Assembly: GCF_000020025.1 (NCBI RefSeq)
Contig: NC_010628.1
Location: 3,330,001-3,362,000, forward strand
Direction of reading: 5' to 3'
DNA length: 32,000 nucleotides
Origin: Nostoc punctiforme PCC 73102
GTDB lineage: Bacteria > Cyanobacteriota > Cyanobacteriia > Cyanobacteriales > Nostocaceae
Shown here: positions 8,142 through 26,456 of the stretch, piece after piece
Position numbering within the stretch: position 1 is the stretch's first letter
Layout of the letters: every line of letters starts with the position of its first letter
The notes under the pieces: model-generated
The model's database searches: none
Seen by the model: the letters and a program-made list of their open reading frames with translations, nothing else
Told to the model about the DNA's origin: nothing
Translations under genes and position numbers: made by a program

Positions 8142-8172
8142 TTGGGGCAGGGGGCAGGGAGCCGTTGCAACT

Positions 8173-11100: not shown

Positions 11101-11197
11101 TGATAGGGATTTTGATGAATTGCAATCCTATTCTTCAATTTTTACGATGTCTTCCAAGCCGTTTCAATCCCTGATAGGGATTTTGATGAATTGCAAT
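8173..11197 (-). CRISPR. CRISPR array with 42 repeats of 37 nt and 41 unique spacers (32-40 nt), read as transcribed on the minus strand
   Basis: The plus-strand repeat is GTTTCAATCCCTGATAGGGATTTTGATGAATTGCAAT. Its reverse complement ATTGCAATTCATCAAAATCCCTATCAGGGATTGAAAC ends in ATTGAAAC and contains a 7-bp stem AATCCCT-ATC-AGGGATT. The repeat at 8173-8208 is degenerate (one deletion, one substitution), marking the leader-distal end. The cas2-proximal end is at 11197. Confidence 0.97.
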
Positions 11198-12858: not shown

Positions 12859-13146
12859 CTAGCCAGAAGGGGACTCAGCAAAGAAAATTGTTTCGTCTCG
12901 TGGCTGTTCTCCACCAATACGTTCGATTTTTCGCTGACAACAGCCACAGAGAAAATAAAAGCGCACGCTATCGGTGTCGGGTTTAATCAATTTGGCTAAA
13001 CGCGATCGCAGTTTAGCATACTGAGTGGGAGTGACATCGCACTCAAATACACTCAGTTGCATCCATTGTCCATAAGACTTAAGAATCGAATGGATTTTAG
13101 TACGACGCTTATCTTCTGGAATGTCGTAGCTGACAACAATATACAT
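12859..13146 (-). CDS. cas2: CRISPR-associated endoribonuclease Cas2
   Basis: 95 aa, MYIVVSYDIPEDKRRTKI…SVFECDV, the typical Cas2 N-terminal beta-strand/Asp motif. It is the last gene of the cas operon, next to the leader. Confidence 0.93.
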   Translation of the reverse strand: MYIVVSYDIPEDKRRTKIHSILKSYGQWMQLSVFECDVTPTQYAKLRSRLAKLIKPDTDSVRFYFLCGCCQRKIERIGGEQPRDETIFFAESPSG

Positions 13147-13149
13147 GAA

Positions 13150-13176
13150 GGGAATGGGGAATGGGGAATAGGGAAA
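13150..13176. repeat. STRR-like heptamer tract (GGGGAAT-type, about 3.5 units) in the cas1-cas2 intergenic spacer
   Basis: The sequence gggaat ggggaat ggggaat agggaaa is read directly between the cas1 stop (13186) and the cas2 start (13146). Confidence 0.8.
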
Positions 13177-13185
13177 AATGATAAA

Positions 13186-14190
13186 TTATTTGAGAACTAA
13201 GGGGGGATATTTATCGATTTCGTTCATCAGGTATTTAGCCAGTAACCTCGCTTGAATTTCAAAGGATTCTTGGTAGGTGCATTTGTTTCCCATGACTGGA
13301 TGTTTGAACTCCGATAGTTTCTTTTGTTGGTAGGCGCGAAGAAATGTATGCAGTCCTTCTTTAGTTAAAGACACAGCACCACTGAGCGGTTCGGTGGTAA
13401 AGTCAGTTAGGGTTAGCGATCGCTTGTTAATCAGCGACAACACTACAGCATCCACTATTAAAGGACGAAATTCTTCCATCAAGTCCAAAGCTAGGGAAGG
13501 TCTACCATAACGTTCGACGTGTAAGTATCCTAGATAAGGATCGAAGCCAACAATATTTAAAGCACTTTGCACATCATGACGTAGTAATGAATACCCAAAA
13601 CTCAGTAGGGCATTAACCGGATCGGTTGGCGGACGGCGGCGTCTGGCTTCAAATCGGAATTCTGGGGTTTTAATTAACTGTTGAAAGCAACCGAAATAGG
13701 CTGCACTACCAGCACCTTCTAAGCCTCTGAGAGAATCAATACTGCTAGTTTTTTCGATTGGTGCGATCGCGTTTTCCAATCGAGTGATGTTATTATTCAG
13801 GTCAGTATCAGGATGTTCTCGCTGAGTGCGAAGTAAGCTATGGCGGTAATTTTTCAATTTACCCCGTACAAATCCTCTGACTAAATGTATTGCTGGTTGT
13901 GATTCTCCCACAGCTTGCCATTGGGCTTTACGAACAAAGATATTTTTGGTAACTTCTGGTTCTAAACGCCCTAAATATCGTCCGTTTTGTGTGAGAAATG
14001 TTAAGCAGATATGACGTTCTAAAAGTTCACTGACAACGGCGGGAGAAATAGTAGCCCGCCCTAATACTACAATCCCTTCTAGTTTAATTAAAGGGATATC
14101 CATGATAGTTTTTTGTTCAGATTTGACGGTGAGACGTTCATCAACTTTGCCGATAAAAGCATCGGCTTGTGTTACGTAAAGTGTTCCCAT
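13186..14190 (-). CDS. cas1: CRISPR-associated integrase Cas1
   Basis: 334 aa, MGTLYVTQ…GKVDERL… with a C-terminal …LGYLHVERYGRPSLALDLMEEFRP… Cas1 catalytic region. It lies adjacent to cas2 and cas4. Confidence 0.95.
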   Translation of the reverse strand: MGTLYVTQADAFIGKVDERLTVKSEQKTIMDIPLIKLEGIVVLGRATISPAVVSELLERHICLTFLTQNGRYLGRLEPEVTKNIFVRKAQWQAVGESQPAIHLVRGFVRGKLKNYRHSLLRTQREHPDTDLNNNITRLENAIAPIEKTSSIDSLRGLEGAGSAAYFGCFQQLIKTPEFRFEARRRRPPTDPVNALLSFGYSLLRHDVQSALNIVGFDPYLGYLHVERYGRPSLALDLMEEFRPLIVDAVVLSLINKRSLTLTDFTTEPLSGAVSLTKEGLHTFLRAYQQKKLSEFKHPVMGNKCTYQESFEIQARLLAKYLMNEIDKYPPLVLK

Positions 14191-14339
14191 TTTTGATTCT
14201 TCCTAGTAATAATTGGGGCTTCAATGAATAGATTTGTCGGGTATAATTAAATACGGGTTAGCAAGGGTTGTTGGTGTAGATAATTGGTTTTTCAAGGCAC
14301 GATGAATCGCGTCTCTACATGATGGTTTTGGGGTATGGT

Positions 14340-14933
14340 TTAATTTACTTCTTGGTAACTTTTGACTTTATCGGTTGCTTTGGGTAAACATTGCGAATAA
14401 AGACTGCATCCTTGGCAGCGTTTGCTGTAAACTGGTTTTGGCATTGCTCCTGTTTCTAGGAGATTTGTCACAGATTCAATAGTAGCGATCGCACTATTTC
14501 GCAACTCTTGATTAATCTCTACTAATTGCCGTTGATGGGAGTGAGCATAATAGATATATCCAGTAGTAACTGGTTCTCCTGTCATTTCTTCTAAACATAA
14601 GGCTTGGGCACAAACTTGTAACTCATCGTTATCCCATTCGCCTTTGCGTCCCCGTTTGTATTCCACTGGATAAACTTGACCAGATTCTGCTTCAATTAAA
14701 TCAGATTTCCCGATGAGTTTGTATTGCTCAGACTTGAGCCAAATTGCCCGAACTTGCCAAGTTTCTCCTCGCTGTATATCGCTTGTAGTGTGGACGCGAT
14801 CGTGTAAAGTTGTGCCTTCAATTGTGTATTGATTATCAGTAAACTCGCCCGCACAAAACATCCGCCAACAGCGATGCGGACAATAGGCGTATTGATTCAG
14901 CGCCGCAATCGAAATATATTCGGTTTGATTCAT
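14340..14933 (-). CDS. cas4: CRISPR-associated exonuclease Cas4 (RecB-like, Fe-S cluster cysteines)
   Basis: 197 aa with an N-terminal YAYCPHRCW and a C-terminal CQGCSLYSQC. This is the one-plus-three cysteine pattern of Cas4, and a D…EYK nuclease motif is present. Confidence 0.92.
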   Translation of the reverse strand: MNQTEYISIAALNQYAYCPHRCWRMFCAGEFTDNQYTIEGTTLHDRVHTTSDIQRGETWQVRAIWLKSEQYKLIGKSDLIEAESGQVYPVEYKRGRKGEWDNDELQVCAQALCLEEMTGEPVTTGYIYYAHSHQRQLVEINQELRNSAIATIESVTNLLETGAMPKPVYSKRCQGCSLYSQCLPKATDKVKSYQEVN

Positions 14934-14964
14934 AACTTAGGTGGTTTTTAAATGATGATTGAAA

Positions 14965-15810
14965 TTATGGAGAATACATCTGTCGCGTCATTCCCATACC
15001 CATTGTTGTTTTTCTGCCGACACCAGTATATAAAGCAAAGTCAGCTAAAGCGTTAATCTGCTTAATTTGTATTGGTTCAACTGCCCCTAAAATCTTATAG
15101 GTAACTTCGCCAATAATGCCAATAAATTTGCTGCGGGAATCAGCTAATATTTCTGTGTGAATATTGACAAATGAGGGAAAGATTGACTCGATCGCAATCT
15201 GAGAAAATTCTATCCCACTGTATTTATTCCACCGCGAAAGTAGGGAATTAAAGACAGATTCTCTGGTAGGAAGGGTAGTGTCATACTGTCCTTGACGGAA
15301 GGCGGTAGGCGTGGAAAAAGTAAGGTTAATGGAAGAATTACCATCGCTAGCTTCTTCGTATAATTGAGCATAAGTATTAGCATTTGCCCAAGGTTGAATA
15401 GATTGGGGTGTGCCTTGAATGCTGGTAATATACAAGTCAGCCGGGCCAAGATGCCAAGGGCGATTGGGATTAAGATTTAGCCAGAGTTGGGTAAGTTTGC
15501 CAAATAAAGTGTCATCTAATAGAGAGATGCGCCACCAACAAGGAGTTCCGGCGGGAATGGGTTGTTGATGTGAGTATTGCAATTTAGATCCCCCCTTACC
15601 ACCCTTCAAAAGGGGAGAGTTTGTATTACTAATTTGTAGAGGTGAGAGGGTGAAAGCTTTATCAGCAGTGGAATCGTGTAAGCGATCGCCCAATGTGCTA
15701 TCTACAGAACTAACAAGGGTTAAAAATAGGGCGTGGAGATGTCTACCTGTAAGATATTGTGGTGGAATGGGCGATTGAGGTAGCAAATTCAACACTAAAC
15801 TATGAGGCAT
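14965..15810 (-). CDS. cas6: CRISPR repeat endoribonuclease Cas6
   Basis: 281 aa with the C-terminal glycine-rich loop GVGRKTTMGMGM typical of Cas6. Its position in a type I-D operon fits. The ATG overlaps the upstream ORF stop by 11 nt. Confidence 0.9.
   Translation of the reverse strand: MPHSLVLNLLPQSPIPPQYLTGRHLHALFLTLVSSVDSTLGDRLHDSTADKAFTLSPLQISNTNSPLLKGGKGGSKLQYSHQQPIPAGTPCWWRISLLDDTLFGKLTQLWLNLNPNRPWHLGPADLYITSIQGTPQSIQPWANANTYAQLYEEASDGNSSINLTFSTPTAFRQGQYDTTLPTRESVFNSLLSRWNKYSGIEFSQIAIESIFPSFVNIHTEILADSRSKFIGIIGEVTYKILGAVEPIQIKQINALADFALYTGVGRKTTMGMGMTRQMYSP
15583..15623. repeat. 41-nt small dispersed repeat copy embedded in frame in cas6
   Basis: tttagatccccccttaccacccttcaaaaggggagagtttg aligns end to end with the intergenic unit at 200-240. 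On the coding strand it contributes the Gly/Lys-rich segment …NSPLLKGGKGGSKLQ… of Cas6. Confidence 0.65.
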
Positions 15811-16420
15811 ACTTTCTCTTTTTGGTTGTAGACTGAGTGCTTCTTGACTCTACAGTAAACTCAGGGATTTCCTGGAGTTCAGCATCACTCAAACTATACT
15901 GTTCACAAACGAGACTTAGGCGATTTCCTGGGGTTTTGACAGCGTTAACCGAATGGGTTAAATCACCTTGAAAATAAACTAAAGTATTGAATTGGGGCTT
16001 AATTTGCCCAAGTTGGCGCTTGTGCGATCGCAATACCAGTTCTCCCCCTTCCATATCCGCAGGTACGCGCACATAAAGCACGCTGACAACCGCAGGCGGT
16101 TCAATGGTTTTGGAGTAGGAACGTAAGGAGCGATCAATATGCGGATCGACGCGGGAGCCTTCTTTTAGCTGTAAAGGATTGAGGTAAAAAGCATTACAGT
16201 TAGGCTGGAGAGCCAAATCTAGGTAAAGCTTGAAGTAGGGAAACTGCTGTTCTACCTTTGCTAATCCAGAACGCTGAAATACTACAGAAAATCCTTTAGT
16301 GGCGACAAAATCGCGGTTGAGGTTGTTGATAGCAAAGTAAGGACAAGCTTGGATTTCTCCCCACAAGTTGTTTAGGTAATCGCTGGGGAAGGCGTTGGTT
16401 TGTTGTTGATAGTGTTTCAC
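15800..16420 (-). CDS. 2OG-Fe(II) oxygenase superfamily protein (prolyl-4-hydroxylase-like fold) embedded in the cas operon
   Basis: 206 aa with a GTG start. It carries an HxD…H…RxS pattern: DPHIDRS, then EGGELVL, then DLTHSVNAV, then GNRLSLV, at the spacing expected for the double-stranded beta-helix facial triad and the 2OG-binding Arg. The tail is basic (TTKKRKYAS). The stop overlaps the cas6 start (ATGCCTCATAG). Confidence 0.7.
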   Translation of the reverse strand: MKHYQQQTNAFPSDYLNNLWGEIQACPYFAINNLNRDFVATKGFSVVFQRSGLAKVEQQFPYFKLYLDLALQPNCNAFYLNPLQLKEGSRVDPHIDRSLRSYSKTIEPPAVVSVLYVRVPADMEGGELVLRSHKRQLGQIKPQFNTLVYFQGDLTHSVNAVKTPGNRLSLVCEQYSLSDAELQEIPEFTVESRSTQSTTKKRKYAS

Positions 16421-16461
16421 TGGGGATGTGAAAGAAATATACTTATAAATCGATGTTCTAC

Positions 16462-16490
16462 AAATTCTCGCACCAATGGCGCGAGAATTT
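16462..16490 (-). other. Intercistronic stem-loop between cas3' and the oxygenase gene
   Basis: A perfect 10-bp stem aaattctcgc / gcgagaattt with a 9-nt loop. It lies 7 nt downstream of the cas3' stop and 42 nt upstream of the GTG start. It has no strong U-tract. Confidence 0.6.
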
Positions 16491-16496
16491 AATTAC

Positions 16497-18776
16497 TTAT
16501 CCTGCAATAAAAACCTCATCATCTGGAAGACGTAATTGTTTAAACTTCATTGCCATTGTTAAAATTCCCGACAAGCCTGTAAAAAATCTATATTCTTTCT
16601 CCATATCATTACAAACAATGGTTATTGGATAAGAAATAATTCCTTGCTTGTTTAATTGGAAAATAACAGCAGCATTTGTTCTGGGGCAAATAATCACTCC
16701 TGGTAACAGATGTTTATTTAAAGCTTGTATTAAAGGTGTTGGTCGTATTGCTCCTCCAGCAGTGCGAATAATTTGGCAATTCTTAAAAGCTGTTAGTTTA
16801 TTCAGTTCTGTACTGATAAATTCTTGCCAGTTATCAGTATAACGTAATCGAAAACTCAATTGATAAGTTTCAGTAGCGCGACTGGTGACTTCAATGTAAT
16901 CACCATTTTGAACAAATTCGTAATAGCGTAATAGGTGAAAAGGATCTAGTTTTGTTTCTTCAGATTCATCTATAATAAAACCATGAGGGTCACGAATGGA
17001 AAGACTTTCAAACAGACTAGAGCGAAAACTAAATAAAGGTGCATAGCTTGTACTAAAAACTTCAGCAAATTCTTTTAACTCAGCTAGTACATCTTCATCT
17101 TTTTGAAATAAATCTACGTATTCGTCTAAAGTTGTACGTCCTGCTTGTAAGTCATCCCAATCTTCAGGAAATTTAGCTTTGATAAAAGTTCTGACAAAAG
17201 CCTGACCACCTTTGATATACTTCCAATCCTTTTTGATTTCTTTGGGAGTTTTTTTTGCAATAGTTTCAGCACCTCGCAAAAGTTTCATTCTATAGCGATA
17301 ATCATCCCAAGTTCTATTTCCTTCAAAAATAGATTTTAGAGTATTGAATAACTCCAAAATCAATTTTTCCTCAGCTAAACCTTCAAGCATTTCTTCCAAT
17401 TCCAATAAGGGACGGGCAATTTCTAGAAATGCTTCTGAACGCCAGTAAGCTTTTAAAAAAGGCTTATTTAAAGAGGGAAGTGTTTCAAGTAAGTCTTTTA
17501 GCGCTGTACGTCCCTCAATAGTATCTAGAGAAGTTAAACCTTCATTCCAGGTGTTAGCAGGTAAGTAAGCAATGGCTTCTGAATCAATATTAGTTTCAGA
17601 TTTACCCAAAACACGCCCTACTCTACCAATTCTCTGCCAAAATGCGGCGCGATCGCGTGCTGAAAAAATCAACCAATCTAAATTTTGCCGTTTCGGTTCA
17701 GGATGTCTTTCAAAGTTAAATCCTACATCTACTGTGCTAGTAGCCAAGATGATTTGACATTGCATAGCCCTTTGTCTATCTTGTTTCGGTGCAGGGCCTG
17801 TAATGCGTCCGATGTAATTACTAAGTCCTTGCTGTCGCAATAAATCTGATAGACGATTAATATTATCAAGAGAATCAAGAATTACAGCACCATTTTCATC
17901 AGGTTTTTCTAGAAAACGTTGGATAACTTCTGCTGCTAACTCTGCTAACCACTCTTCCTTACTATCTGGTTTTGGTCTTAATTCCAGATTAACTGCTGTT
18001 TGTGACGGTAAAAGATTAGTATTACCTGATTCTCCATCAATTATTGCTATTTTTACACCAGCTTGTTTTAAATTCTGCAATGCTAATTCACAAGCTGGTT
18101 CTGGTGTTGCTGTGAGTAAAACTACCTTGCGTCCATTTTCAAAAAACCGAAAAATATGAGAATAGGCAAGATAAAACAGCATTCCTACTAACTGTTTAGC
18201 ATCGTAGAGGTGAAATTCATCAAAAATGACTGTCGAAAATTTGGTGTAAAAACCAGCAGCAATATTACCTCTATCCAGATTATTATATGCAAAGAAAGTT
18301 GCATAGTAAAAAATATAAGGATTTGTTACCAATAGAATTGGTGTATTCGCCCCAACATCATCGAAAACTGTAGCAGGATTTCGCAAAACATTATATAGCT
18401 TTTCTCCTGAACGACGACCAACTTTATCGTCAGGCCAGCTTTTAATATCTTTAGCTGAGGCTGATTTCACAACATGAGGTAAGTTAGCATCACGAACAAA
18501 CTGTTTTGCTGCTTCTGTTTGCTGTTCAATTAAAGCATTAGTGGGAGCAATGTAAACAGCACTGTTATTCGGCTGATGTTTTAATACTGCTAATCCTGCT
18601 TTAGTTTTACCTGTGCCAGTTGGTGCTAAATCAAGGATAATATCTGCATCCTTAGATTGTTCAAATACATCTAGTTGGTGTTGAAGTGCATTCTTTATGA
18701 AAGATATTTTATCTGGTGATGCACAAGCTGAAATACTACGGGGTTCTAATCTGATAACTAAGTTTTGATTACTCAT
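16497..18776 (-). CDS. cas3: Cas3' helicase (DEAD/DEAH-box SF2, no HD domain)
   Basis: Walker A is LAPTGTGKTKAG and motif II is VIFDEFHLYD. The helicase C-terminal region reads …QRIGRVGR…. The preferred start is ATG 18776-18774 (MSNQNLVIRLEP…), which overlaps the csc1 stop as ATGAGTAA. The ORF-track start at 18818 lies inside csc1. Confidence 0.9.
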   Translation of the reverse strand: MSNQNLVIRLEPRSISACASPDKISFIKNALQHQLDVFEQSKDADIILDLAPTGTGKTKAGLAVLKHQPNNSAVYIAPTNALIEQQTEAAKQFVRDANLPHVVKSASAKDIKSWPDDKVGRRSGEKLYNVLRNPATVFDDVGANTPILLVTNPYIFYYATFFAYNNLDRGNIAAGFYTKFSTVIFDEFHLYDAKQLVGMLFYLAYSHIFRFFENGRKVVLLTATPEPACELALQNLKQAGVKIAIIDGESGNTNLLPSQTAVNLELRPKPDSKEEWLAELAAEVIQRFLEKPDENGAVILDSLDNINRLSDLLRQQGLSNYIGRITGPAPKQDRQRAMQCQIILATSTVDVGFNFERHPEPKRQNLDWLIFSARDRAAFWQRIGRVGRVLGKSETNIDSEAIAYLPANTWNEGLTSLDTIEGRTALKDLLETLPSLNKPFLKAYWRSEAFLEIARPLLELEEMLEGLAEEKLILELFNTLKSIFEGNRTWDDYRYRMKLLRGAETIAKKTPKEIKKDWKYIKGGQAFVRTFIKAKFPEDWDDLQAGRTTLDEYVDLFQKDEDVLAELKEFAEVFSTSYAPLFSFRSSLFESLSIRDPHGFIIDESEETKLDPFHLLRYYEFVQNGDYIEVTSRATETYQLSFRLRYTDNWQEFISTELNKLTAFKNCQIIRTAGGAIRPTPLIQALNKHLLPGVIICPRTNAAVIFQLNKQGIISYPITIVCNDMEKEYRFFTGLSGILTMAMKFKQLRLPDDEVFIAG

Positions 18777-19527
18777 TGCTACTTTCTCTACCGCAAAAAT
18801 GTAAACCTGCTGGCACAATCATTTCTCCAATTTGCCAAGCAGCACCCCGAAAATGAAGATTTTTAATGATGGGTGCAGGAGGAATAGAAATTAAATCGAA
18901 CGCTAAAGCCTCTATTTGCTGTGGTAAATCAGCAGCATTTAGGTAATGTTGACTTTGATATTCACCTTCTGGTAGTAAAGTCACAGGGAATTCATTCAGC
19001 ACATTCACTTGAACTTTACTCATGAATTTACCAAGGCGAATATAAGTTGGTAATTGGTGATTTCCAAATACCAAAGTTTGAAATTTGTTTCTGCGTTCAA
19101 TCATCCGCAGTCTTCCAGTTTGGGGAAAATTACTTGGTCTAAATGAACTTGGTTTTTTACCTTGGCGTTGTAATGGTAAATCTTCCCGCGCCGTAGCAAC
19201 ACGGTTATTAGTCATTGCATACCAGTAAGCATCAGAAAGAGCATTGAAACGTTCAAATCTGAATGTTACTCTACCTACTGGTGAAGCTGGTAAGATATAA
19301 AAATCTTGCGCTATTGGTTGGAAATCTTCTTTGTAGGTTGGTCGTCCTGTAGCCTGACCTTGGAGGCGATAGGGGGAATTTACTCTACCTAAAGCATAAG
19401 TAAGAGCATAATTCCCAATTACCCCCTCAGTGTAATAGGTATCAGACAACTCCCTAGAGGCAAAAAAGACTGGTTCAAGACAGTATAATTCAACAAGTTT
19501 TGCCTGCTGAAAAGGAATTGTTGACAT
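18769..19527 (-). CDS. csc1: Type I-D Cas5d (Csc1)
   Basis: 252 aa, sited between csc2 and cas3' with tight spacing. The N-terminus …LYCLEPVFFASRELSDTYYTEGVIGNYALTYALG… resembles the Csc1/Cas5 family. The assignment rests on context plus recollection of the family. Confidence 0.8.
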   Translation of the reverse strand: MSTIPFQQAKLVELYCLEPVFFASRELSDTYYTEGVIGNYALTYALGRVNSPYRLQGQATGRPTYKEDFQPIAQDFYILPASPVGRVTFRFERFNALSDAYWYAMTNNRVATAREDLPLQRQGKKPSSFRPSNFPQTGRLRMIERRNKFQTLVFGNHQLPTYIRLGKFMSKVQVNVLNEFPVTLLPEGEYQSQHYLNAADLPQQIEALAFDLISIPPAPIIKNLHFRGAAWQIGEMIVPAGLHFCGRESSNE

Positions 19528-19529
19528 AT

Positions 19530-20558
19530 TTAACTCTCTACTTCAACTGGTGTATTTTTCCCTTTAGCCTTAGCCTTTTTCTTTTCAGTTGCGACGTGAC
19601 GGAAGGGTTCATAAGATTGGGTTAAACGCTTAAGAAAATTATCACGTTCGGCTTCTGACCAATTAGTTTCTACATCAGTCAGTAAATTTGCTAATTCTTC
19701 TTCAGATAGCTGCACAGAAACCCCTCTCTTATTTTTCCAATTAGCAATTACTTGTTTGCTTGCTGTAATTAATTGATTAATATTCAAAGGATGTTCTAAA
19801 GGTTTACCTAATACATCATAAGTAGCTTGTACAAGTTCTAGAGAACTAGGAAGTTCAGTAATACTACCAAATACACCTAATATCTCGTTTTCCATTCGTC
19901 CAACACGACTTGAAACCGCACCATAACGACTTGTGAAAAGAATATTACCGATGATATATCTCAGTTCATCAGCAGTTACATCTTTTAGGGTGACGACATC
20001 CAAAAAATGCACACCTGGTTTAATGTATTCGCTGGTATTCAAGGCTGTTGAGGCGTTACCTTTTTCATCGCGCATTGTGCCATTTTCGTAGATGGCGTTT
20101 ATGGTGCGATCGCCTACAACATCACTAGCAGGTAAAATACTAAAAGCGTCTTCAGTCCAAATACGACTTTTTTGTGCGCCACCTCCACCAGCAGCGAAGC
20201 CGTAAAGGAAACAATCTACACACATTTCACAAGGTGCATTAGTATTTAAAGAACAAAGAGAGCCATCTTTAATATTGGTATATAAAAGTTCATGCGCTCT
20301 TAAATGTTCACGTCCGTAGCGTCTTTCTGGTGCTACTTGTTTGCGCTTAGTCATTACCAAGCGTTGAATTATAGTTTTTTGATTTTCACCCTCTAAACCA
20401 GCTTGTACAAATTCGCTACACATTGGCTCACCTGAACCTTCTGTGCGGAAGATAGTTTCAGAATGGGTTGTTCTTAAAACAACTAAAGTAATAAAACGCC
20501 CTTTAGGGAAGTTTTCATAACTTGCTGCTAGTACTGTAGAAAGTTTTGAAATTGACAT
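19530..20558 (-). CDS. csc2: Type I-D Cas7d (Csc2) backbone subunit
   Basis: 342 aa, directly downstream of cas10d. It has a cysteine cluster CEMCVDCFLYGFAAGGGG and RAMP-like glycine-rich segments. The size and position are typical of Csc2. Confidence 0.82.
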   Translation of the reverse strand: MSISKLSTVLAASYENFPKGRFITLVVLRTTHSETIFRTEGSGEPMCSEFVQAGLEGENQKTIIQRLVMTKRKQVAPERRYGREHLRAHELLYTNIKDGSLCSLNTNAPCEMCVDCFLYGFAAGGGGAQKSRIWTEDAFSILPASDVVGDRTINAIYENGTMRDEKGNASTALNTSEYIKPGVHFLDVVTLKDVTADELRYIIGNILFTSRYGAVSSRVGRMENEILGVFGSITELPSSLELVQATYDVLGKPLEHPLNINQLITASKQVIANWKNKRGVSVQLSEEELANLLTDVETNWSEAERDNFLKRLTQSYEPFRHVATEKKKAKAKGKNTPVEVES

Positions 20559-20575
20559 GATAAACTCCTAATTAT

Positions 20576-21010
20576 TTAAACGGTTGCAGTTGTTTCGACA
20601 GAATCATTTTCAGATTGGCTTTTAAGCTGTTTACGCGCTTCTTCAAGGAAGAATAAATAAGCAGCTTCTAAAGTTTTTTGGTCAGATAAAAACTTTTCAG
20701 GACGTGCTGAATAAACCTCCTCATATAGTTTTCGTAATAGCTCGTAATAACGCTTGACCTGTTCATACTTTGTTGCACCTACGCCATGCTCACGGATACG
20801 GTCTAAGCGAGTATGATATTGCTGTACTAAAGCAGCAAAAATTACATCTAAACCCAAATAAGACTTTTGAGAACGAATAGCAGCTATAAAGGCTGTAAAC
20901 GGTTCTGCTTGAGCAGTTCGTTTAAAAGAACTTCCCCAAATTTTTCCCTCTGCTGCAACTTGAGCAGCTTCTCTAAGATATTTAGTTAAGAGTAAGTTTT
21001 CATCAGGCAT
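20576..21010 (-). CDS. Candidate internally translated small subunit (Cas11d-like), nested in frame in the cas10d 3' end
   Basis: An in-frame ATG at 21010-21008 is preceded by GGAGAGcttt (Shine-Dalgarno-like, ~6 nt spacing). It would give a 144-aa helical C-terminal product (MPDENLLLTKYLREAAQ…). It is called by analogy to reported internal translation of Cas11d. Confidence 0.4.
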   Translation of the reverse strand: MPDENLLLTKYLREAAQVAAEGKIWGSSFKRTAQAEPFTAFIAAIRSQKSYLGLDVIFAALVQQYHTRLDRIREHGVGATKYEQVKRYYELLRKLYEEVYSARPEKFLSDQKTLEAAYLFFLEEARKQLKSQSENDSVETTATV

Positions 21011-23317
21011 AAAGCTCTCCAACAAAGTATTTAACGGTTCACAAATGCGACTCCAAATAACGCTCAAATTTGGTTCGTCTTGTTCTCGCAGAGTCCAACG
21101 TAGCAAGACATAATAAAGTTCAATTGGTCTGACACAAGCACGAGCCAAATCATACAAACAATCATCAGCTTTCTGAATACTTGCAACAGATGTTGCTAGT
21201 TTGCTAATACATTGCAGTCGCTCAATAATTCTTTCTGCACTTAGAGTCTCTCTATTTTCCTTAATTTCTTCTTTCTTAAAACGTTTATACTGACCACTTC
21301 CAAGTAGACGTATAAGTGCAGATGGAATTCCTTCTACTCTTCCAAAAATCCTATCGTCAACTGTATGAGTTGATATTTCTACCTCTAAGTTTCCACTGAG
21401 AGTAAAAGGAAAGCCAATATCTAAAGACAAGGAAATTTCTAAAGCAAGTCTCAGTGATTTTAGTAAAGCTAAAGAATTATTAACATCTCCCCAAAGTAAA
21501 GGAATAATGACAGATGTATGAACAAAATCAGGACGTTTTGGTAATGCTAAACCGACTACTTTGTTAGCTTTAAATTCAAGCTGGTTATCTTTATATAATT
21601 TCAATTCATCAACTGTGACAGTACCTCCCTCAGCATTTGTCGCTGCGAGTTGTTTTAAAAGTTCACGCCAAATTCTCAACAGTTCTGGAGCAGAACCTTT
21701 AGGTAATGCTAAGTGCAAATAAAGGGGGTCTTGTTTTTTAACAGCAGGAAAATTCGCCCCAACTGCCATTAATTGGTAAGCTAAAGCTGCAATTGAATCT
21801 GCTTGCCTTTTCGGTTCAGCACTAATACCACCCGGTAAGCGGTTAGAAAAAGCTTGTACTTTTGTACCAGGAGGCATATTATCTGAAATTAGCTCATCTA
21901 TATCAGTAGAAGTAGAACCTAAAGAGCATCTTTGTCTGGGATTAGCTTCTACATAAGCATTTAAATCATTGCCTCCATTTAACCGAATAGCAAAAGGTAA
22001 ATTTACCATTCGGCTAACGGCTGCAATCATTTCTTCAGATACTTCTGTTTCTTCAGATATTTGTGTACTTTCCTTTCTTAGCTGGAAAGATTCTTGTAGA
22101 GCTTCTTTAATACCCTCAATTCCTTTAACAGCAGCCTTAGCAGCAAATAAAGGTCGCCCATATTGACCATTAAATGGCTCAATAGCAGTGCGCTGAAGTT
22201 CAGAGATACCCGTATGATGAGCGATTTTATCCCAAACTTCTTTAGGGGTTAATCCGGCTTCTCTATAACTGAGGTAAGCTGCCTTTAAACCTTCAGATAT
22301 GGCAAATTCTTCTGCATTACTTACAGGTAATAACTGAAGTTCAGCCGCTTTTATTAGTGCATCTGCACCAGCCGCTTCACCCCACTTAGTTACATCTTTA
22401 GCAATCTTGTCTGATTTATAACCAGCTTTTTTCCTTTCTAAAAGAGCCTCAACATTTACCAATACTTCCTCAATATTTTGTTGGATAGCTTGATGAGAAA
22501 CTTTAATACCATCTTTGGTAGCTCTGACAAGTCTTTCGATATTATTACCAAAAACTTGGTCAATTTTACTTTGCCAAACAGCAGCTATTTCTTTTGTAAA
22601 ATCTATATTTGCTAAAGCTTCCCCTTCAAAAAGTTCGCCATCAGGGAAAATTGCTAAAGGATTTAACCCATATTTTTGTAAAACTTCTTCGCAAGCACCC
22701 AGCAATAGGGCTGTAATATAGCCTTTGTCTTCAGAAATGCTGATTCTAAAAAGGTTACAGCTTCGTCCAAAAGCAACGGTTAATTCTTTTTCCAGTTTGC
22801 GAAAACGTTGTGCATCTGGAATTCCTAAATCAAACAAGTCCGCAGCTGTCAGCATCGCCGCCCAACGTTCAATATTTGGGTCTTCTGGTAAAAACCTTGA
22901 ACCATCGCTGATATTATGGCCTGAATGACGCTCAATTAGCTTTCTAACTAACTCCAAATCATCTTCTGAAACGACAAATGTAAGTACACAAGCTTTTTCA
23001 AGTTGTTCTCGTAAAAATTCCTGATTTCTAGCCAGGGTTTTAACATTGCGTTTTTGGGTATCTAATTTATTCAGGTCATGAACAGCAGTCGCAGCTAGTA
23101 GCAAAGGTCTTTTATCTTCTGGAACTTCTGCTATACGGCTGACTGTCAAAATGAACTGACACGCAGAATCGAGGTGTTCTGCAAGAGTTGTACCCGTTCT
23201 CACACCAGTTTGATGACGATGTGCATGATTTTCGTAAAGCTGGGGGCGAATTTCACTAAAATAAATCTCCTCCAAGGTTTTGGGAGGAGCATTTAAAAGC
23301 CGACTGCGCTTAATCAT
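20576..23317 (-). CDS. cas10d: Type I-D large subunit Cas10d with N-terminal HD nuclease domain
   Basis: 913 aa. The N-terminal HD motifs are …HAHRH…LAEHLDS…AATAVHDLNKLD. An HD domain here, together with an HD-less Cas3' helicase, is the type I-D signature. Confidence 0.88.
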   Translation of the reverse strand: MIKRSRLLNAPPKTLEEIYFSEIRPQLYENHAHRHQTGVRTGTTLAEHLDSACQFILTVSRIAEVPEDKRPLLLAATAVHDLNKLDTQKRNVKTLARNQEFLREQLEKACVLTFVVSEDDLELVRKLIERHSGHNISDGSRFLPEDPNIERWAAMLTAADLFDLGIPDAQRFRKLEKELTVAFGRSCNLFRISISEDKGYITALLLGACEEVLQKYGLNPLAIFPDGELFEGEALANIDFTKEIAAVWQSKIDQVFGNNIERLVRATKDGIKVSHQAIQQNIEEVLVNVEALLERKKAGYKSDKIAKDVTKWGEAAGADALIKAAELQLLPVSNAEEFAISEGLKAAYLSYREAGLTPKEVWDKIAHHTGISELQRTAIEPFNGQYGRPLFAAKAAVKGIEGIKEALQESFQLRKESTQISEETEVSEEMIAAVSRMVNLPFAIRLNGGNDLNAYVEANPRQRCSLGSTSTDIDELISDNMPPGTKVQAFSNRLPGGISAEPKRQADSIAALAYQLMAVGANFPAVKKQDPLYLHLALPKGSAPELLRIWRELLKQLAATNAEGGTVTVDELKLYKDNQLEFKANKVVGLALPKRPDFVHTSVIIPLLWGDVNNSLALLKSLRLALEISLSLDIGFPFTLSGNLEVEISTHTVDDRIFGRVEGIPSALIRLLGSGQYKRFKKEEIKENRETLSAERIIERLQCISKLATSVASIQKADDCLYDLARACVRPIELYYVLLRWTLREQDEPNLSVIWSRICEPLNTLLESFMPDENLLLTKYLREAAQVAAEGKIWGSSFKRTAQAEPFTAFIAAIRSQKSYLGLDVIFAALVQQYHTRLDRIREHGVGATKYEQVKRYYELLRKLYEEVYSARPEKFLSDQKTLEAAYLFFLEEARKQLKSQSENDSVETTATV

Positions 23318-23428
23318 GTTGAAAGATATAAATTTAATACCAAACTCAGTCTCACAAAGTGGTCAACAAACACCATAGTCTGTCTTAATTTATTGCGCCA
23401 CTAGTACGAGTTTTTACTGAATAAATTT

Positions 23429-23788
23429 TCAAGCCCTATTTTCAGGTGGGCGAATTCTGACTCTATCTAATTCAGCAGTTACAATTGCACCAGAGAATAA
23501 TTCGTCTCTGTAAAGCTGGAGTACCTGCAAACAAACTATTGATTGTTCTTTGGTTGAGAGATTAACTAAGCGCAAGATACCACAGTGAGGATTTCCCCGC
23601 AGAATTGCTAACTCTCCAAAATCTTTATCAAGGGTGACTAAAATCCTACCTTCACGATAGGCGGTTGCTAAAATTTCCTCGTCACCTGGGTCTTTTGGCC
23701 AATCTCCAGACCAAACCACATCATACCCAGTCGTTTGTAAATCGTTACGCACCCTAGCATTAATGCAAGTATCTAGTAGTATTTTCAC
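23429..23788 (-). CDS. DUF5615-family PIN-like (Mut7-C-like) putative toxin
   Basis: 119 aa, MKILLDTCIN…DEEILATAYREGRILVTLDKDFGELA…GILRL. It overlaps the upstream DUF433 gene by 4 nt (ATGA). Confidence 0.8.
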   Translation of the reverse strand: MKILLDTCINARVRNDLQTTGYDVVWSGDWPKDPGDEEILATAYREGRILVTLDKDFGELAILRGNPHCGILRLVNLSTKEQSIVCLQVLQLYRDELFSGAIVTAELDRVRIRPPENRA

Positions 23789-24036
23789 CTTGGAGATTCT
23801 ATCAATAAAGGTTCAATTCGTTCATGACCAACTAACCTTCGTGCATAGATTAAACAAGCTTGCACATCTTCCCGTTCTAACCAGGGATAAGCTTCTAGCA
23901 AAGTTTCAATAGTATCTCCTACTGCTAACATTCCTAAAATATGTTCAACAGCTAGGCGACGACCTCGAATTATCGGTTTACCACCAAAGATTTGGGGGTT
24001 AAATGTGATTCTTTCTAGTAACGTTTGTTCGTTCAT
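23785..24036 (-). CDS. DUF433-domain putative antitoxin
   Basis: 83 aa, …ITFNPQIFGGKPIIRGRRLAVEHILGMLAVGDTIETLLEAYPWLEREDVQACLIYA…, a canonical DUF433 pattern. It is translationally coupled to the DUF5615 gene. Confidence 0.82.
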   Translation of the reverse strand: MNEQTLLERITFNPQIFGGKPIIRGRRLAVEHILGMLAVGDTIETLLEAYPWLEREDVQACLIYARRLVGHERIEPLLIESPR

Positions 24037-24038
24037 GG

Positions 24039-24124
24039 TTTATGCAATGACCTCTAATACAAGGTTTACCGAAACAAATATTGGAGTCAAGGGAAATTCT
24101 GGACAGCAAACGATCATCGGTCAT
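24039..24124 (-). pseudogene. 5' fragment of a second DUF433 gene, paralogous to the one at 26196-26456
   Basis: It reads MTDDRLLSRISLDSNICFGKPCIRGHCIN…, compared with MSDNDLLSRISIDPNICFGKPCIRGHRIW… at 26456. A 17-nt run ggtttaccgaaacaaat is identical in both copies. The fragment runs out of frame into the intact DUF433 gene and terminates shortly after. Confidence 0.7.
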
Positions 24125-24223
24125 GGTCGTTGACCTCACTAGCTGCTTTTTCAAGAAATGGGAGTAGTAGTAACTACCCCCGATAGGTGAAAAATACTGT
24201 TTATACGATCGCTTTTGACTCTA

Positions 24224-24406
24224 CTACCAACCGCCACTTTCGTCGTTGGCCTTGAATACGACGATCTTCAAAGATATAACCTCTTTTCTCAGAACATACA
24301 TAGTTGCAGAGAATAGATAGCTAATTTTCTTGACCAATTCCTCGGTAGAGTACCAGGAAGCATCTGACATAAGCCGAAGCATACGATCTGGAAGGTTGTC
24401 TTTCAA
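24224..24406 (-). CDS. Small ORF resembling an HTH_11/YafY-type winged-helix N-terminal domain; possibly a truncated regulator remnant
   Basis: 60 aa with a TTG start preceded by GAGGTGAT. The segment …RMLRLMSDASWYSTEELVKKIS…VLRKEV…ESGGW* resembles the HTH plus GGY end of YafY-like HTH-WYL regulators but stops where the WYL domain would begin. The similarity was judged by eye only. Confidence 0.3.
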   Translation of the reverse strand: MKDNLPDRMLRLMSDASWYSTEELVKKISYLFSATMYVLRKEVISLKIVVFKANDESGGW

Positions 24407-24559
24407 AGTAGATCACCTCAATAGGTTTGCGCCGAAAAAGCCGTGTTAGTGCTAACCTATGAGATAGGACTCAACATAGGTGAACTGAAACGACTTTGTT
24501 TCGGTTCTCCTGAATATAACATATTCCTGTCTGTAGTAAAGAAGTGTCTTGTTAGGCTT

Positions 24560-24664
24560 GCGAACAAAAAAATGTTCCGCGAGATTTTTGAGATAGGTCA
24601 CATTGAGTTTATGAAAATTGTCAAATCAGCGAGCAAAAAAAATGTTCACCGAGATTTTTGAGAT
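24560..24664. repeat. Two ~35-bp direct repeats, ~69 bp apart, immediately upstream of the mini-CRISPR
   Basis: gcgaacaaaaaaatgttccgcgagatttttgagat (24560-24594) versus gcgagcaaaaaaaatgttcaccgagatttttgagat (24629-24664). They differ by 3 substitutions and 1 indel. Each contains CAAAAA…TTTTTG inverted ends. Confidence 0.85.
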
Positions 24665-24671
24665 GTATACT
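24643..24671 (+). promoter_or_regulatory. Candidate promoter for the mini-CRISPR RNA
   Basis: A near-consensus -10 TATACT lies at 24666-24671, right after direct repeat 2. The -35 is weak (TGTTCA with a 17-nt spacer, or TTCACC with a 15-nt spacer). Motif-level evidence only. Confidence 0.25.
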
Positions 24672-24680
24672 AAAGAAGCC

Positions 24681-24779
24681 TTGAGAATACACTCTAATCC
24701 CTAGCAGGGATTGAAATTGTAGGAAAGATGTGATCAAGGCATTAACATAACTTCATGAATCCCTATCAGGGATTGTAAG
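24681..24779 (+). ncRNA. Degenerate two-repeat mini-CRISPR (psiR1, ~25-40 nt psi-spacer, psiR2): a crRNA-like RNA candidate or a decayed array remnant
   Basis: psiR1 (24681-24717) ttgagaatacactctAATCCCTAgCAGGGATTGAAAt matches the transcribed-orientation repeat at 20 of its last 22 nt. psiR2 (24743-24779) …TTCATgAATCCCTATCAGGGATTGtAAg matches about 26 nt with 1 substitution and 1 deletion. Both keep the 7-bp Cas6-type stem. The orientation is opposite to the main array. Confidence 0.6.
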
Positions 24780-24802
24780 CCAGAGTGTAGCTCTGGCTTT
24801 TT
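24778..24802 (+). terminator. Rho-independent terminator directly after psiR2
   Basis: An 8-bp stem agccagag / ctctggct with a 5-nt loop tgtag, followed by a T-run (ttttt). The stem starts within the last 2 nt of psiR2. Confidence 0.65.
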
Positions 24803-24921
24803 CCGTATTTGCCTAGCGAGTAACATTGTGTCTTTTGGTATTCAAATTATTGATTAACTTAGTATACATATAAAATAGCTAGAAATACCATTAATGTCAA
24901 TAGTGTAACTGCAAATTATAG

Positions 24922-25791
24922 ATGCCGAGAAAAAAAGAAACGATTACACTGTCAATTCCGCCGGGAACCAAGGATCAACTAGAAGCGATCGCTCGCCAAC
25001 TCAATATCACTTGGGGCAAAGAACCAAGTATTTCGGGCTTAATAGTAGCGATCGCACAACAATCTGTAGAGGTCGGAAAGCCTTTCACCCTTGACTCAAA
25101 CCAAGTTAACGCTTTACACAAAGCTATCAAAGCCCTGAGTGATGCAGGTCAGATAGGGGAAGCTCAAACTGTACTTACACTTTTGTTAGAGCGTAGTAAT
25201 CTTGAAGCTCCCTTGCGTCAATCGCTGATGAAACAACTGAGTCAACCTGCTCCTGCATGGCGAATTCAAATTGAAGAGTTAATCAAGAAACAACAGCCTT
25301 TCTACCTTGTTTATCAAAACTCTCAAGGTGATGAATTAGCATATACAGTTCGCTATGCTGAAGTTCGTTTCTTTGAGAGACGTTTTTACTTAATGATGTG
25401 GTGTGAAGAAACTCAAGATGTAGAAAACGATATTCCTGATTTACCAGAGTTATGGCACAATCGCTGCTTGCGCCTAGACCGCATTGAATCAATGGCAACT
25501 ATACCCGCCAGTGGAAATTGGCGTGGAGAACTAGGTTATCTAGAAGTGTACTTGCATTTTCGCCAAGGCTTAGTTAAAGCCTATCAACCTAAAGAAGATG
25601 ACATTAAAGATGAAGTTATTGGAGATGTTCGCCAAGTCGTGCGGAGAGTAGTTAATGATTTTTGGTTGATTCGAGAAGTATCACGGTATTGGGAAGATTG
25701 CGTGATTGTATCACCAGAGAGTCTGCGCGATCGCCTCAAACAAAAACTCGTCACCCTTTGCCAGTTATACGATATCGAAACCAGGAGTTAA
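24922..25791 (+). CDS. WYL-domain transcriptional regulator with an N-terminal ribbon-helix-helix-like segment (CRISPR-associated regulator candidate)
   Basis: 289 aa. The N-terminus ETITLSIPPGTKDQLEAIARQLN…SISGLIVAIAQ has an RHH-like strand-helix-helix pattern. The central block PFYLVYQNSQGDELAYTVRYAEVRFFERRFYLMMWCEE…RCLRLDRIESM fits the WYL-domain consensus. It is transcribed divergently from the cas operon. Confidence 0.8.
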   Translation: MPRKKETITLSIPPGTKDQLEAIARQLNITWGKEPSISGLIVAIAQQSVEVGKPFTLDSNQVNALHKAIKALSDAGQIGEAQTVLTLLLERSNLEAPLRQSLMKQLSQPAPAWRIQIEELIKKQQPFYLVYQNSQGDELAYTVRYAEVRFFERRFYLMMWCEETQDVENDIPDLPELWHNRCLRLDRIESMATIPASGNWRGELGYLEVYLHFRQGLVKAYQPKEDDIKDEVIGDVRQVVRRVVNDFWLIREVSRYWEDCVIVSPESLRDRLKQKLVTLCQLYDIETRS

Positions 25792-26199
25792 GTGTGTTCG
25801 GGGAGACTGAAAAGCCTTCCCTCCTAATACATCTGGCTCAATCGGTCGATATTCCTGAATGCTTCCCCTCTGAATAATCCACAACTTCCCAGTTACTTCT
25901 GCGGCATTTAGCCCCTGAATCAGTGTCTCTATTGCTTCTTGCCAAAATGCACAATTAGGACGAGAGGGTAAGCGAATAATCACAATTCCTGGATAATCAG
26001 AAGGATTGTATTTTAGACGATTTCCAAATCCGCGATCGCAAGTAACTAAACATCTACCTTCACACCTACAAACATCAATAACTTCAGTATCTGGTGCACA
26101 ACTTAAACCTTGTCCTGGGACTGTTGCAATATCATGTCCTGCTAATTGCAATAAAGTTACAACGCGCAAGTCGATATTTTCATCTAGCTTTAATTTCAC
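25765..26199 (-). CDS. DUF5615-family PIN-like putative toxin (second copy)
   Basis: VKLKLDENIDLRVV…GHDIATV…DTEVIDVCRCEGRCLVTCDRGFGN…GIVIIRL. The preferred start is GTG 26199-26197, overlapping the DUF433 stop as GTGA. The ORF-track start at 26277 lies inside the antitoxin gene. The 3' end overlaps the convergent WYL gene by 27 nt. Confidence 0.75.
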   Translation of the reverse strand: MKLKLDENIDLRVVTLLQLAGHDIATVPGQGLSCAPDTEVIDVCRCEGRCLVTCDRGFGNRLKYNPSDYPGIVIIRLPSRPNCAFWQEAIETLIQGLNAAEVTGKLWIIQRGSIQEYRPIEPDVLGGKAFQSPRTHLTPGFDIV

Positions 26200-26456
26200 G
26201 CACTTGCTTCCTTCTTCTTTGTCAAAGGAAGTTCCACAAAAACATCCCGCACCATCTCTGCACCATAGGCGATACAAGCCAGCACATCTTCTCTTTCTAT
26301 ACTTGGATAAGCTTCAAGAACTTCTTCGATTGTTGTACCACCAGCTAAATAGTCCAAAATTAGTGATACCCAAATCCGATGTCCGCGAATGCACGGTTTA
26401 CCGAAACAAATGTTCGGGTCGATAGAAATTCGAGACAGCAAATCATTGTCACTCAT
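26196..26456 (-). CDS. DUF433-domain putative antitoxin (second copy)
   Basis: 86 aa, …ISIDPNICFGKPCIRGHRIWVSLILDYLAGGTTIEEVLEAYPSIEREDVLACIAYGA…. Confidence 0.82.
   Translation of the reverse strand: MSDNDLLSRISIDPNICFGKPCIRGHRIWVSLILDYLAGGTTIEEVLEAYPSIEREDVLACIAYGAEMVRDVFVELPLTKKKEASA

Follow-up and report, generated by a model that had tools for sequence, protein, structure and literature searches.

A complete cyanobacterial type I-D CRISPR-cas locus lies in a 32,000-nt stretch of the Nostoc punctiforme PCC 73102 genome (NC_010628.1, positions 3,330,001 to 3,362,000 of the forward strand; hereafter the window), and between the cas10d side of this locus and a WYL/WCX transcription regulator gene is a mini-array of two degenerate repeats, psiR1 and psiR2, separated by a single spacer-like segment, the psi-spacer. 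Analysis of the sequence suggests that the mini-array is most likely a degenerate mini-CRISPR encoding a regulatory RNA of the CreA/CreR type, similar to a CRISPR RNA (crRNA), and that this RNA quite probably guides Cascade to repress a promoter at 24513-24540. A previous sequence-only reading of the window had placed such a unit between the cas10d side and the WYL gene and had proposed the same kind of RNA; the location holds, and the proposal is now supported by a promoter target flanked by a protospacer-adjacent motif (PAM) and by at least five psi-spacer/target pairs in relatives. Coordinates of the features are collected in Table 1.

The two repeat-like units flank one spacer-like segment inside a cas locus whose subtype matches. 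On the plus strand of the window, the motif AATCCCT-N3-AGGGATTG is present only at 24696-24713 and 24758-24775 (chance expectation 0.01), and all of its remaining copies are main-array repeats on the minus strand. Compared in repeat register with the canonical 37-nt repeat ATTGCAATTCATCAAAATCCCTATCAGGGATTGAAAC, psiR1 is identical at 26/37 positions; psiR2, which carries a 1-nt deletion, is identical at 21/37 in an ungapped comparison. The decay is concentrated in the 5' halves, with both hairpins and the psiR1 handle retained. Rfam family CRISPR-DR5 matches both units on the plus strand at sub-threshold scores (28.8 and 24.2 bits; gathering score 40), and a search of 23300-25000 against Rfam returned only sub-threshold CRISPR-DR matches plus noise (Ysr49, SNORD25). 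The motif search and these matches bear out the two plus-strand repeats with a Cas6 hairpin and most of the handle that the sequence-only reading had described; its statements that the 5' halves are decayed, that the 3' handles read ATTGAAAT and ATTGTAAG, and that the unit runs opposite to the main array are likewise upheld by the alignment and by the strand of the other motif copies.

The predicted transcript (24678-24806) folds as two repeat hairpins followed by a terminator (z = -3.8). The stem of the terminator, AGCCAGAG/CTCTGGCT, begins at 24778, within the final 2 nt of psiR2, exactly where the earlier reading had put it; a simple terminator scanner missed it because the longest stem consumes part of the T run. 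The TATACT box at 24666-24671 ends 9 nt before psiR1, and the block upstream of it is near-invariant in an alignment of the closest group of relatives (family A, below).

A scan of every position on both strands of the window, scored against the psi-spacer with every sixth position left free, yields a single outlier: a GTC-flanked site (24529-24546) that matches psi-spacer positions 1-5, 7-11 and 13-15 (13/15) and departs from it only at positions 6 and 12. These are the bases that type I Cascade flips out, and they are never paired in type I complexes. The seed run of this GTN-flanked site is 15, against a null maximum of 10 both for 40 real main-array spacers and for 300 shuffles of the psi-spacer; all other sites in the window, on both strands, are at chance level (seed run of at most 9). 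The site is thus a seed-anchored partial match next to the PAM of the subtype, the type I-D interference PAM being GTN/GTH and Cas6d leaving an 8-nt 5' handle (PMC10212523). The sequence-only reading had found only chance-level partial matches in the window and had taken the target to be unknown or elsewhere; neither statement stands, as the predicted target is in the very same intergenic region. It overlaps a predicted leftward promoter that lies 186 bp from the mini-array: the -35 box TTTACT (24540-24535) corresponds to protospacer positions 4-9, the GTC PAM falls within the promoter spacer, and the TGt-TATATT -10 element is at 24518-24513.

Comparison with relatives covered 80 genome loci of 12 kb around WYL homologues, together with Logan contig L081 and the Dolichospermum metagenome contigs L082-L088. 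The psi-spacers form unrelated families, at least five of which have a cognate target 85-186 nt upstream, on the same strand and with a GTC or GTT PAM. Family A (window, L020, L006, L012, L081 and Dolichospermum L082-L088) has the GTC-flanked target of the window; the other pairs are psi-spacer TAGTGACATATATACAT with target GTC-TAGTGtCATATAaACAT in family C (L007, L011, L016, L034, L035, L044), TGTGTAAATGGA with GTC-TGTGTcAATGGA in family D (L052), AGTACCGCGATCGAG with GTT-AGTACaGCGATaaAG in family G (L055, L078), and AGTGCCGCAATTGATA with GTT-AGTGCgGCAATgGATA in family H (L064). The cognate targets are the top-scoring sites of their 12-kb loci; L052 is the exception, its target having the longest seed run but coming third by match count. 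Across the five families all eight mismatches within positions 1-12 (8/8) fall at position 6 or 12 (P about 1e-7), and within family A the first 21 nt of the psi-spacer vary only at these two positions. A leftward promoter-like site coincides with the PAM-proximal part of the target in all five families; among the relatives scanned, the promoter scanner calls ATGACA-18-TATACT over the target in L011 and TTGACA-18-TAGATT in L052, whereas in the Dolichospermum locus L082 the target receives no call. That guide and target co-vary in this way, with the pairing signature of type I systems, is the strongest argument for a Cascade-guide function.

A two-repeat mini-array occupies the same place in 20 of the 80 genome loci, and the Dolichospermum contigs have the same layout. 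These mini-arrays are just upstream of the WYL gene in nearly all cases (beside the winged-helix gene described below in L064), always on the WYL strand, and psiR2 is always fused to a GCCAGAG...CTCTGGCTTTTT terminator. The psiR1 handle ATTGAAA is kept, apart from single substitutions in L044 and L075, and the psiR2 handle varies freely; since Cascade needs the former, and Cas6 needs the hairpin, the one part of psiR2 that is kept, this pattern supports a guide function. The last base of the psiR1 handle is T, A or G in almost all mini-arrays and C only in L021 and the Dolichospermum loci; the canonical repeat ends in C. Family B (L002, L019, L021, L026) was rejected as a source of ungapped target pairs, its near-copy being out of register: the GTC-flanked sequence at ~5713-5735, TTACAG-ATATAGATTA, is shifted by 1 nt after position 6 relative to the psi-spacer (at 5802) TTACAGGATATAGATTA, so that the pair either has decayed or tolerates a bulge. 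Nostoc sp. DedQUE08 (L001) carries at 5780-5860 a truncated family C mini-array, consisting of a partial psi-spacer, psiR2 and the terminator. Its WYL protein is the most similar to that of the window among the fetched genome loci (98%), which indicates recombination between regulator and mini-array types.

We infer the following course of events. A transcript of ~125 nt would run from ~24678 to the terminator at 24803; Cas6d would cut both retained hairpins, releasing an RNA composed of an 8-nt 5' handle AUUGAAAU, the psi-spacer and the psiR2 hairpin, in which the guide may extend to 24757, the start of that hairpin; and the processed RNA would load into type I-D Cascade. Cascade would recognise the GTC PAM at 24529-24531 and pair with 13 of the next 15 nt, leaving positions 6 and 12 unpaired, and pairing would end after position 15. 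A pairing of 15 would be too short to license DNA cleavage, so Cascade would stay on the DNA, cover the -35 box of the leftward promoter (24540-24513) and repress it. The CRISPR effector would in this way hold down the genes that head its own locus, namely a winged-helix gene, a DUF433/DUF5615 pair and cas10d, and repression would lift upon loss of Cascade, its inhibition or its titration by other crRNAs. The main array is proposed to compete with the mini-array for Cas6 and Cascade; the window has intact cas6 and Cascade genes.

Table 1. Mini-array, predicted target and surrounding features of the window (positions counted from the first nucleotide of the window).
Feature	Position	Strand	Remarks
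Candidate mini-array promoter	24643-24671	+	Conserved block TGTTCACCGAGATTTTTGAGAT (24643-24664) and -10-like TATACT (24666-24671)
psiR1, degenerate repeat	24681-24717	+	Hairpin AATCCCT-AGC-AGGGATT perfect; handle ATTGAAAT; source of putative 8-nt crRNA-like 5' handle
psi-spacer TGTAGGAAAGATGTGATCAAGGCAT	24718-24742	+	Between psiR1 and psiR2
psiR2, more degenerate repeat	24743-24779	+	Hairpin AATCCCT-ATC-AGGGATT intact; handle ATTGTAAG merged into terminator stem
Intrinsic terminator AGCCAGAG-TGTAG-CTCTGGCT-TTTT	24778-24803	+	-15 kcal/mol, z = -5.1
Predicted target	PAM GTC 24529-24531; protospacer TGTAGtAAAGAaGTG 24532-24546	+	psi-spacer match
Leftward promoter-like site TTTACT-16-(TGt)TATATT	24540-24513	-	Scanner score 9/12, plus extended -10
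5' untranslated region, ~100 nt	24407-24506	-	Hairpins GAACCGAAAC/GTTTCAGTTC and CCTATG/CATAGG; strong Shine-Dalgarno sequence GAGGTGATC
Small winged-helix open reading frame, 60 codons, degenerate	24224-24406	-	-1 frame continuation 24195-24281
Hairpin after winged-helix gene	24160-24181	-	Terminator-like, weak U tract (ATTTCTTG)
DUF433 gene remnant	~24042-24136	-	
DUF433 gene, intact	23785-24036	-	Toxin-antitoxin cargo with DUF5615
DUF5615/PIN-like gene, intact	23429-23788	-	Toxin-antitoxin cargo with DUF433
WYL/WCX transcription regulator gene	24922-25791	+	Directly downstream of mini-array terminator
Type I-D cas operon	12859-23317	-	Order cas10d, csc2, csc1, cas3', 2OG-Fe(II) oxygenase, cas6, cas4, cas1, cas2
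cas10d	20576-23317	-	
cas6	14965-15810	-	
Main CRISPR array, ~42 repeats	8164-11183	-	Source of canonical 37-nt repeat ATTGCAATTCATCAAAATCCCTATCAGGGATTGAAAC

The first gene behind the targeted promoter encodes a member of a small winged-helix family of 63-76 residues (248 representatives at E <= 1e-3; consensus MKDNLPDRMLRLMSDGxWHSTEELVEKISHRFSATMHVLKKRGYxFEKRRxxGQxHEYRL). An AlphaFold model of the protein (pLDDT 85) has three helices and two strands; Foldseek finds only a generic winged-helix resemblance (Zalpha, Stf76, ArsR/MarR and BirA-type domains, E > 0.1), and searches of Pfam and NCBIfam gave no match. The modelled fold thus resembles those of transcription regulators, and no toxin similarity is seen in the fold matches. 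The copy in the window has three lesions: a start codon that is TTG and not the ATG of relatives, a change of HR to YL in the conserved SHRFSAT motif (the H being invariant and the R nearly so in relatives), and a 1-nt deletion after codon 41, beyond which the -1 frame restores the family C-terminus GYIFEDRRIQGQRRKWRLVVESKAIV*. The same frameshift is present in L081. The leader of the gene has conserved hairpins in the window and in the homologous regions of L052, L055, L056, L064 and L082; it falls into two sequence groups with different self-complementary arms (CCGAAA/TTTCGG and CCAGAC/GTCTGG), and because these align badly the RNAalifold consensus is poor (-4.85 kcal/mol). The hairpin that follows the gene in the window is also present behind its Dolichospermum counterpart.

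Between the target and cas10d, which the promoter faces, lies ~1.2 kb of cargo, including this terminator-like hairpin; the DUF433/DUF5615 toxin-antitoxin (TA) pair is 111 nt from cas10d, with no predicted terminator between them. A second DUF433/DUF5615-like pair is present at 25765-26456 on the minus strand, convergent with the WYL gene, and the 95-nt DUF433 remnant is 73% identical to the 5' end of this second pair, which points to repeated turnover of TA cargo around the regulator.

Across the loci the targeted promoter always faces the cas10d operon, and the insert of small genes and TA cargo varies. The winged-helix gene is behind the promoter in the window family, L052, L055/L078, L064 and Dolichospermum, where it is followed in close succession by the same hairpin, the TA pair MNT/HepT, and a cas10d that overlaps the HepT stop codon by 8 nt; in L012 the promoter directly abuts the DUF433/DUF5615 pair. 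Families B and C and some other loci have instead an open reading frame (ORF) of 55-70 residues, with cas10d within ~30 nt; in L011, L016, L035 and L044 of family C the targeted promoter leads into a 55-residue ORF and cas10d follows ~30 nt on. To judge from gene order, this arrangement in families B and C is a CreR-like autoregulatory layout. The ORFs belong to a second small family (for example MNYSVEHIAHKIAECLVLIDKYQREILRLRRVIADL...; L011 5396-5563, L002 5411-5623, with homologues in L007, L016, L019, L021, L026, L034, L035, L044, L045, L063 and L075), which has no match in Pfam or NCBIfam, is confined to mini-array-bearing loci and sits between the target promoter and cas10d. In other loci the start of cas10d is ~180 bp from the WYL gene, with neither cargo nor mini-array.

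Several observations weigh against repression of this promoter by a Cascade-bound guide, or against its extending to cas10d. The sequence-only reading had paired the TATACT with a weak -35, and indeed the mini-array promoter has no recognisable -35 box and receives no call from the sigma-70 scanner. The guide region from the handle to the psiR2 hairpin measures ~40 nt, against ~47-55 nt in canonical units; a shortened type I-D Cascade assembly is assumed. In two relatives (L015 and L028) no target can be recognised for the mini-array. In N. punctiforme PCC 73102 the gene that comes first after the targeted promoter is degenerate, and the terminator-like hairpin behind it implies that the repressed transcript may end before the TA pair and cas10d. 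Moreover, the TA pair and cas10d are retained in L001, L003, L033 and L065, which lack a functional mini-array or target, and cas10d must therefore have another promoter too. With cargo and hairpin intervening, and with relatives keeping cas10d without the element, the available sequences do not establish autoregulation of cas10d in the window.

In a possible, though distinctly less probable, explanation the molecular mechanism is the same and the unit is a self-contained guard cassette like CreTA or CrePA, silencing only the adjacent winged-helix gene. The product of that gene would be harmful, or would act as an alarm, when derepressed, and its transcript would end at the hairpin at 24160-24181. 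Consistent with such a cassette, mini-array and winged-helix gene are each closed by a separate terminator-like hairpin, although that of the gene has a poor U tract, and the pair travels beside different cargo, DUF433/DUF5615 in Nostoc and MNT/HepT in Dolichospermum; in other psi-spacer families, however, the same kind of promoter leads straight to cas10d. All loci in which the winged-helix gene has an intact promoter and target (window, L006, L020, L052, L055, L078, L064, L081, L082-L088) also have the mini-array, and five independent deletions with different end points (L027/L033, L030/L031, L032, L054, L056) took out the mini-array along with the 5' end of the winged-helix gene or its promoter; in L027, L030 and L031 no cas10d is seen either in the 6 kb upstream of the WYL gene. 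The reverse state, a mini-array without the winged-helix gene, occurs in L012, L015 and L028. This asymmetry of deletion and retention is as expected of an addiction module of the CreTA/CrePA type, but mini-array and winged-helix gene are only ~190 bp apart and the numbers are small, so the co-deletions can be chance, and L079, with a winged-helix gene 85 bp from the WYL gene and no mini-array, is a possible exception. The three lesions of the window copy also suit a guard; with its winged-helix gene dead, this strain would harbour a relic of the circuit, orphaned recently. That the protein is a plain winged helix like those of transcription regulators, without a known toxin fold, counts against a guard. 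A narrower version, rather unlikely in our estimation, has a DNA-binding payload: loss of Cascade or its block by an anti-CRISPR would derepress the winged-helix protein, which would harm the cell or serve as an alarm that switches on TA or cas genes, with the WYL protein as a second input. On the sequences compared, the guard cassette ranks as the main rival to, or a refinement of, the proposed Cascade-guided repression, and below it.

That the mini-array is a non-functional remnant, either the decayed end of an array or a stray duplication of repeats, with the target match left over from shared ancestry, we regard as improbable. The 5' halves of both repeats are degenerate, the region is a rearrangement hotspot (remnants of genes, a promoter duplicated in part, numerous deletions in relatives), and type III mini-arrays have been seen as degraded repeats by Shmakov et al. 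(PMC10120712). Against this, the decay is selective, sparing the hairpins and the psiR1 handle, and five unrelated pairs share a correct PAM, the confinement of mismatches to positions 6 and 12 and an equal placement of each target relative to its promoter. None of the 80 loci has a longer array at the site, and never are there more than two repeats; the normal multi-spacer array that the sequence-only reading had named as the observation that would count against it is thus absent from the related loci examined. Least probable of all is a unit with no DNA target, serving either as a decoy for Cas6 or Cascade, as do the Racr RNA anti-CRISPRs, or as a structured leader or insulator of the WYL gene. 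Solitary repeat-mimicking units are indeed known as RNA anti-CRISPRs (PMC10651486), and the unit, which has a terminator at its end, directly precedes the WYL gene and is oriented as that gene is; yet it belongs to the chromosome, where it lies within the cas locus of the host and is conserved along with a PAM-flanked target that matches it, and the WYL gene keeps its proximal upstream region and persists where the mini-array has been deleted and in many loci that never had one.

Elements of this kind have been predicted for type I-D before, contrary to the impression of the sequence-only reading, which was not aware of any description: Shmakov et al. 2023 (PMC10120712, Figs 4 and 6) reported mini-arrays in 15% of 128 I-D loci and predicted that the cas10d promoter contains targets, and I-D elements are listed in Fig. 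S7 of the CreR preprint (10.1101/2023.03.10.532045). The same authors described two I-D clades whose mini-arrays are directed at cargo promoters (those of TA pairs or transcription regulators) upstream of cas10d, the region being a shuffling hotspot for which empty relatives exist (PMC10120712). The window element shares with the mini-arrays of Shmakov et al. the I-D locus, the two repeats of which the seed-adjacent one is better preserved, transcription opposite to the cas genes, a canonical PAM, a target in the promoter upstream of cargo and cas10d, sixth-position mismatches, a gene-shuffling hotspot with empty relatives, and a position that is conserved while spacers vary; the WYL neighbour, the fixed fusion of psiR2 to the terminator and the two small gene families behind the target are unmentioned in that text. 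With its location upstream of TA/regulator cargo and cas10d and its target in the cargo promoter, the element is, on present sequence evidence, best filed with the I-D cargo-regulating mini-arrays, as a well-resolved additional example of a kind already predicted for I-D.

The related classes CreTA, CreR and CrePA are summarised in PMC12737573. With CreR the element has in common a degenerate mini-CRISPR in a cas locus, a partial match at a PAM-flanked promoter directed toward effector genes, and no expected cleavage; the family C loci, in which the targeted promoter leads almost directly into cas10d, are closest to CreR, whereas the window differs in having ~1.2 kb of cargo and a terminator-like hairpin between target and cas10d. 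With CreTA and CrePA it shares a compact divergent arrangement of a crRNA-like gene and a small gene whose promoter is targeted by partial complementarity, and the co-deletion pattern and cas linkage fit such an addiction module (10.1101/2024.01.05.574328; PMC12737573). It differs from these in that the repressed gene encodes a winged-helix protein rather than a tRNA-sequestering RNA or a known toxic protein, that this gene is degenerate in the window, and that a conventional TA pair is further downstream. Repeat-mimicking hairpins outside an array are also a feature of Racr and other solitary repeat units (PMC10651486); those, however, are decoys borne by phages or mobile elements with no promoter target in a host cas locus, whereas the window unit is host-encoded and has a cognate, co-varying target. 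The element displays every sequence-level hallmark of the crRNA-like regulator class, for which experimental proof exists for types I-B, I-E, I-F and V-A, CreR itself having been shown experimentally only for I-B, I-E and V-A (10.1101/2023.03.10.532045; PMC12737573); our literature search found no experimental proof of crRNA-like regulators for type I-D.

Type I-D systems are common in cyanobacteria, and to our knowledge their regulation is known only through a WYL repressor in Synechocystis. The biological role of the element may be supervision of cas and TA genes, that of a guard cassette, or, in the window strain, that of a relic. If the proposed mechanism is correct, then in its native host type I-D Cascade can serve as a programmable repressor, and CRISPR effectors supervise neighbouring regulators and toxin-antitoxin cargo in cyanobacteria, with a bearing on the control of cas expression, the stability of cas loci and responses to anti-CRISPRs. 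A guard with a DNA-binding payload, if real, would be a new payload class of the CreTA/CrePA type and the first such circuit for type I-D and for cyanobacteria. The locus lends itself to a clear-cut test, with a single PAM, a single promoter and 13 pairing bases involved, and offers natural controls in relatives with other psi-spacer/target pairs, deletions and empty sites.

Upstream of the mini-array, the block TGTTCnCCGAGATTTTTGAGAT is present twice, at 24573-24594 and 24643-24664, the second copy adjoining the mini-array -10 box; it contains a GAGAT-N4-GAGAT direct repeat (24652-24664 in the second copy), and a related TTTTGAGATG...TATACT sequence is found upstream of the WYL gene in empty loci. 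The duplicated block may be a regulator-binding site. Its origin from a duplicated main-array leader was considered and rejected, as the main-array leader does not have the conserved block. The start of the predicted transcript, GCCUUGA (24678-24684), is complementary to psi-spacer positions 17-23, UCAAGGC (24734-24740), in a stem that would enclose psiR1; the stem appears in the minimum-free-energy fold, and 6-8 bp of such complementarity are found in several other psi-spacer families, but we do not rely on it because the combined P is only 0.03 across eight families. The best-scoring promoter-like site of the region, TTGACA-17-TATTTT (10/12), is on the minus strand at 24872-24900, within the region upstream of the WYL gene, and is directed into the mini-array in antisense; its TGTCAATAGTG motif is conserved upstream of many WYL genes.

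The assignment of the host locus to type I-D comes from matches to Csc1, Csc2, Cas3' (cyano) and Cas1d and a weak match to Cas10d. The closest named relative of the window WYL protein, 98% identical, is from Nostoc cf. commune SO-36. A 2OG-Fe(II) oxygenase-family gene (15800-16420, minus strand) is located inside the cas operon between cas3' and cas6, and an IS701-family transposase gene (11372-12682, plus strand) is inserted between the main-array leader and cas2. A 2198-codon ORF (1545-8141, plus strand) with twelve tandem repeats of 276 nt (92 residues) ends just before the distal end of the CRISPR array.

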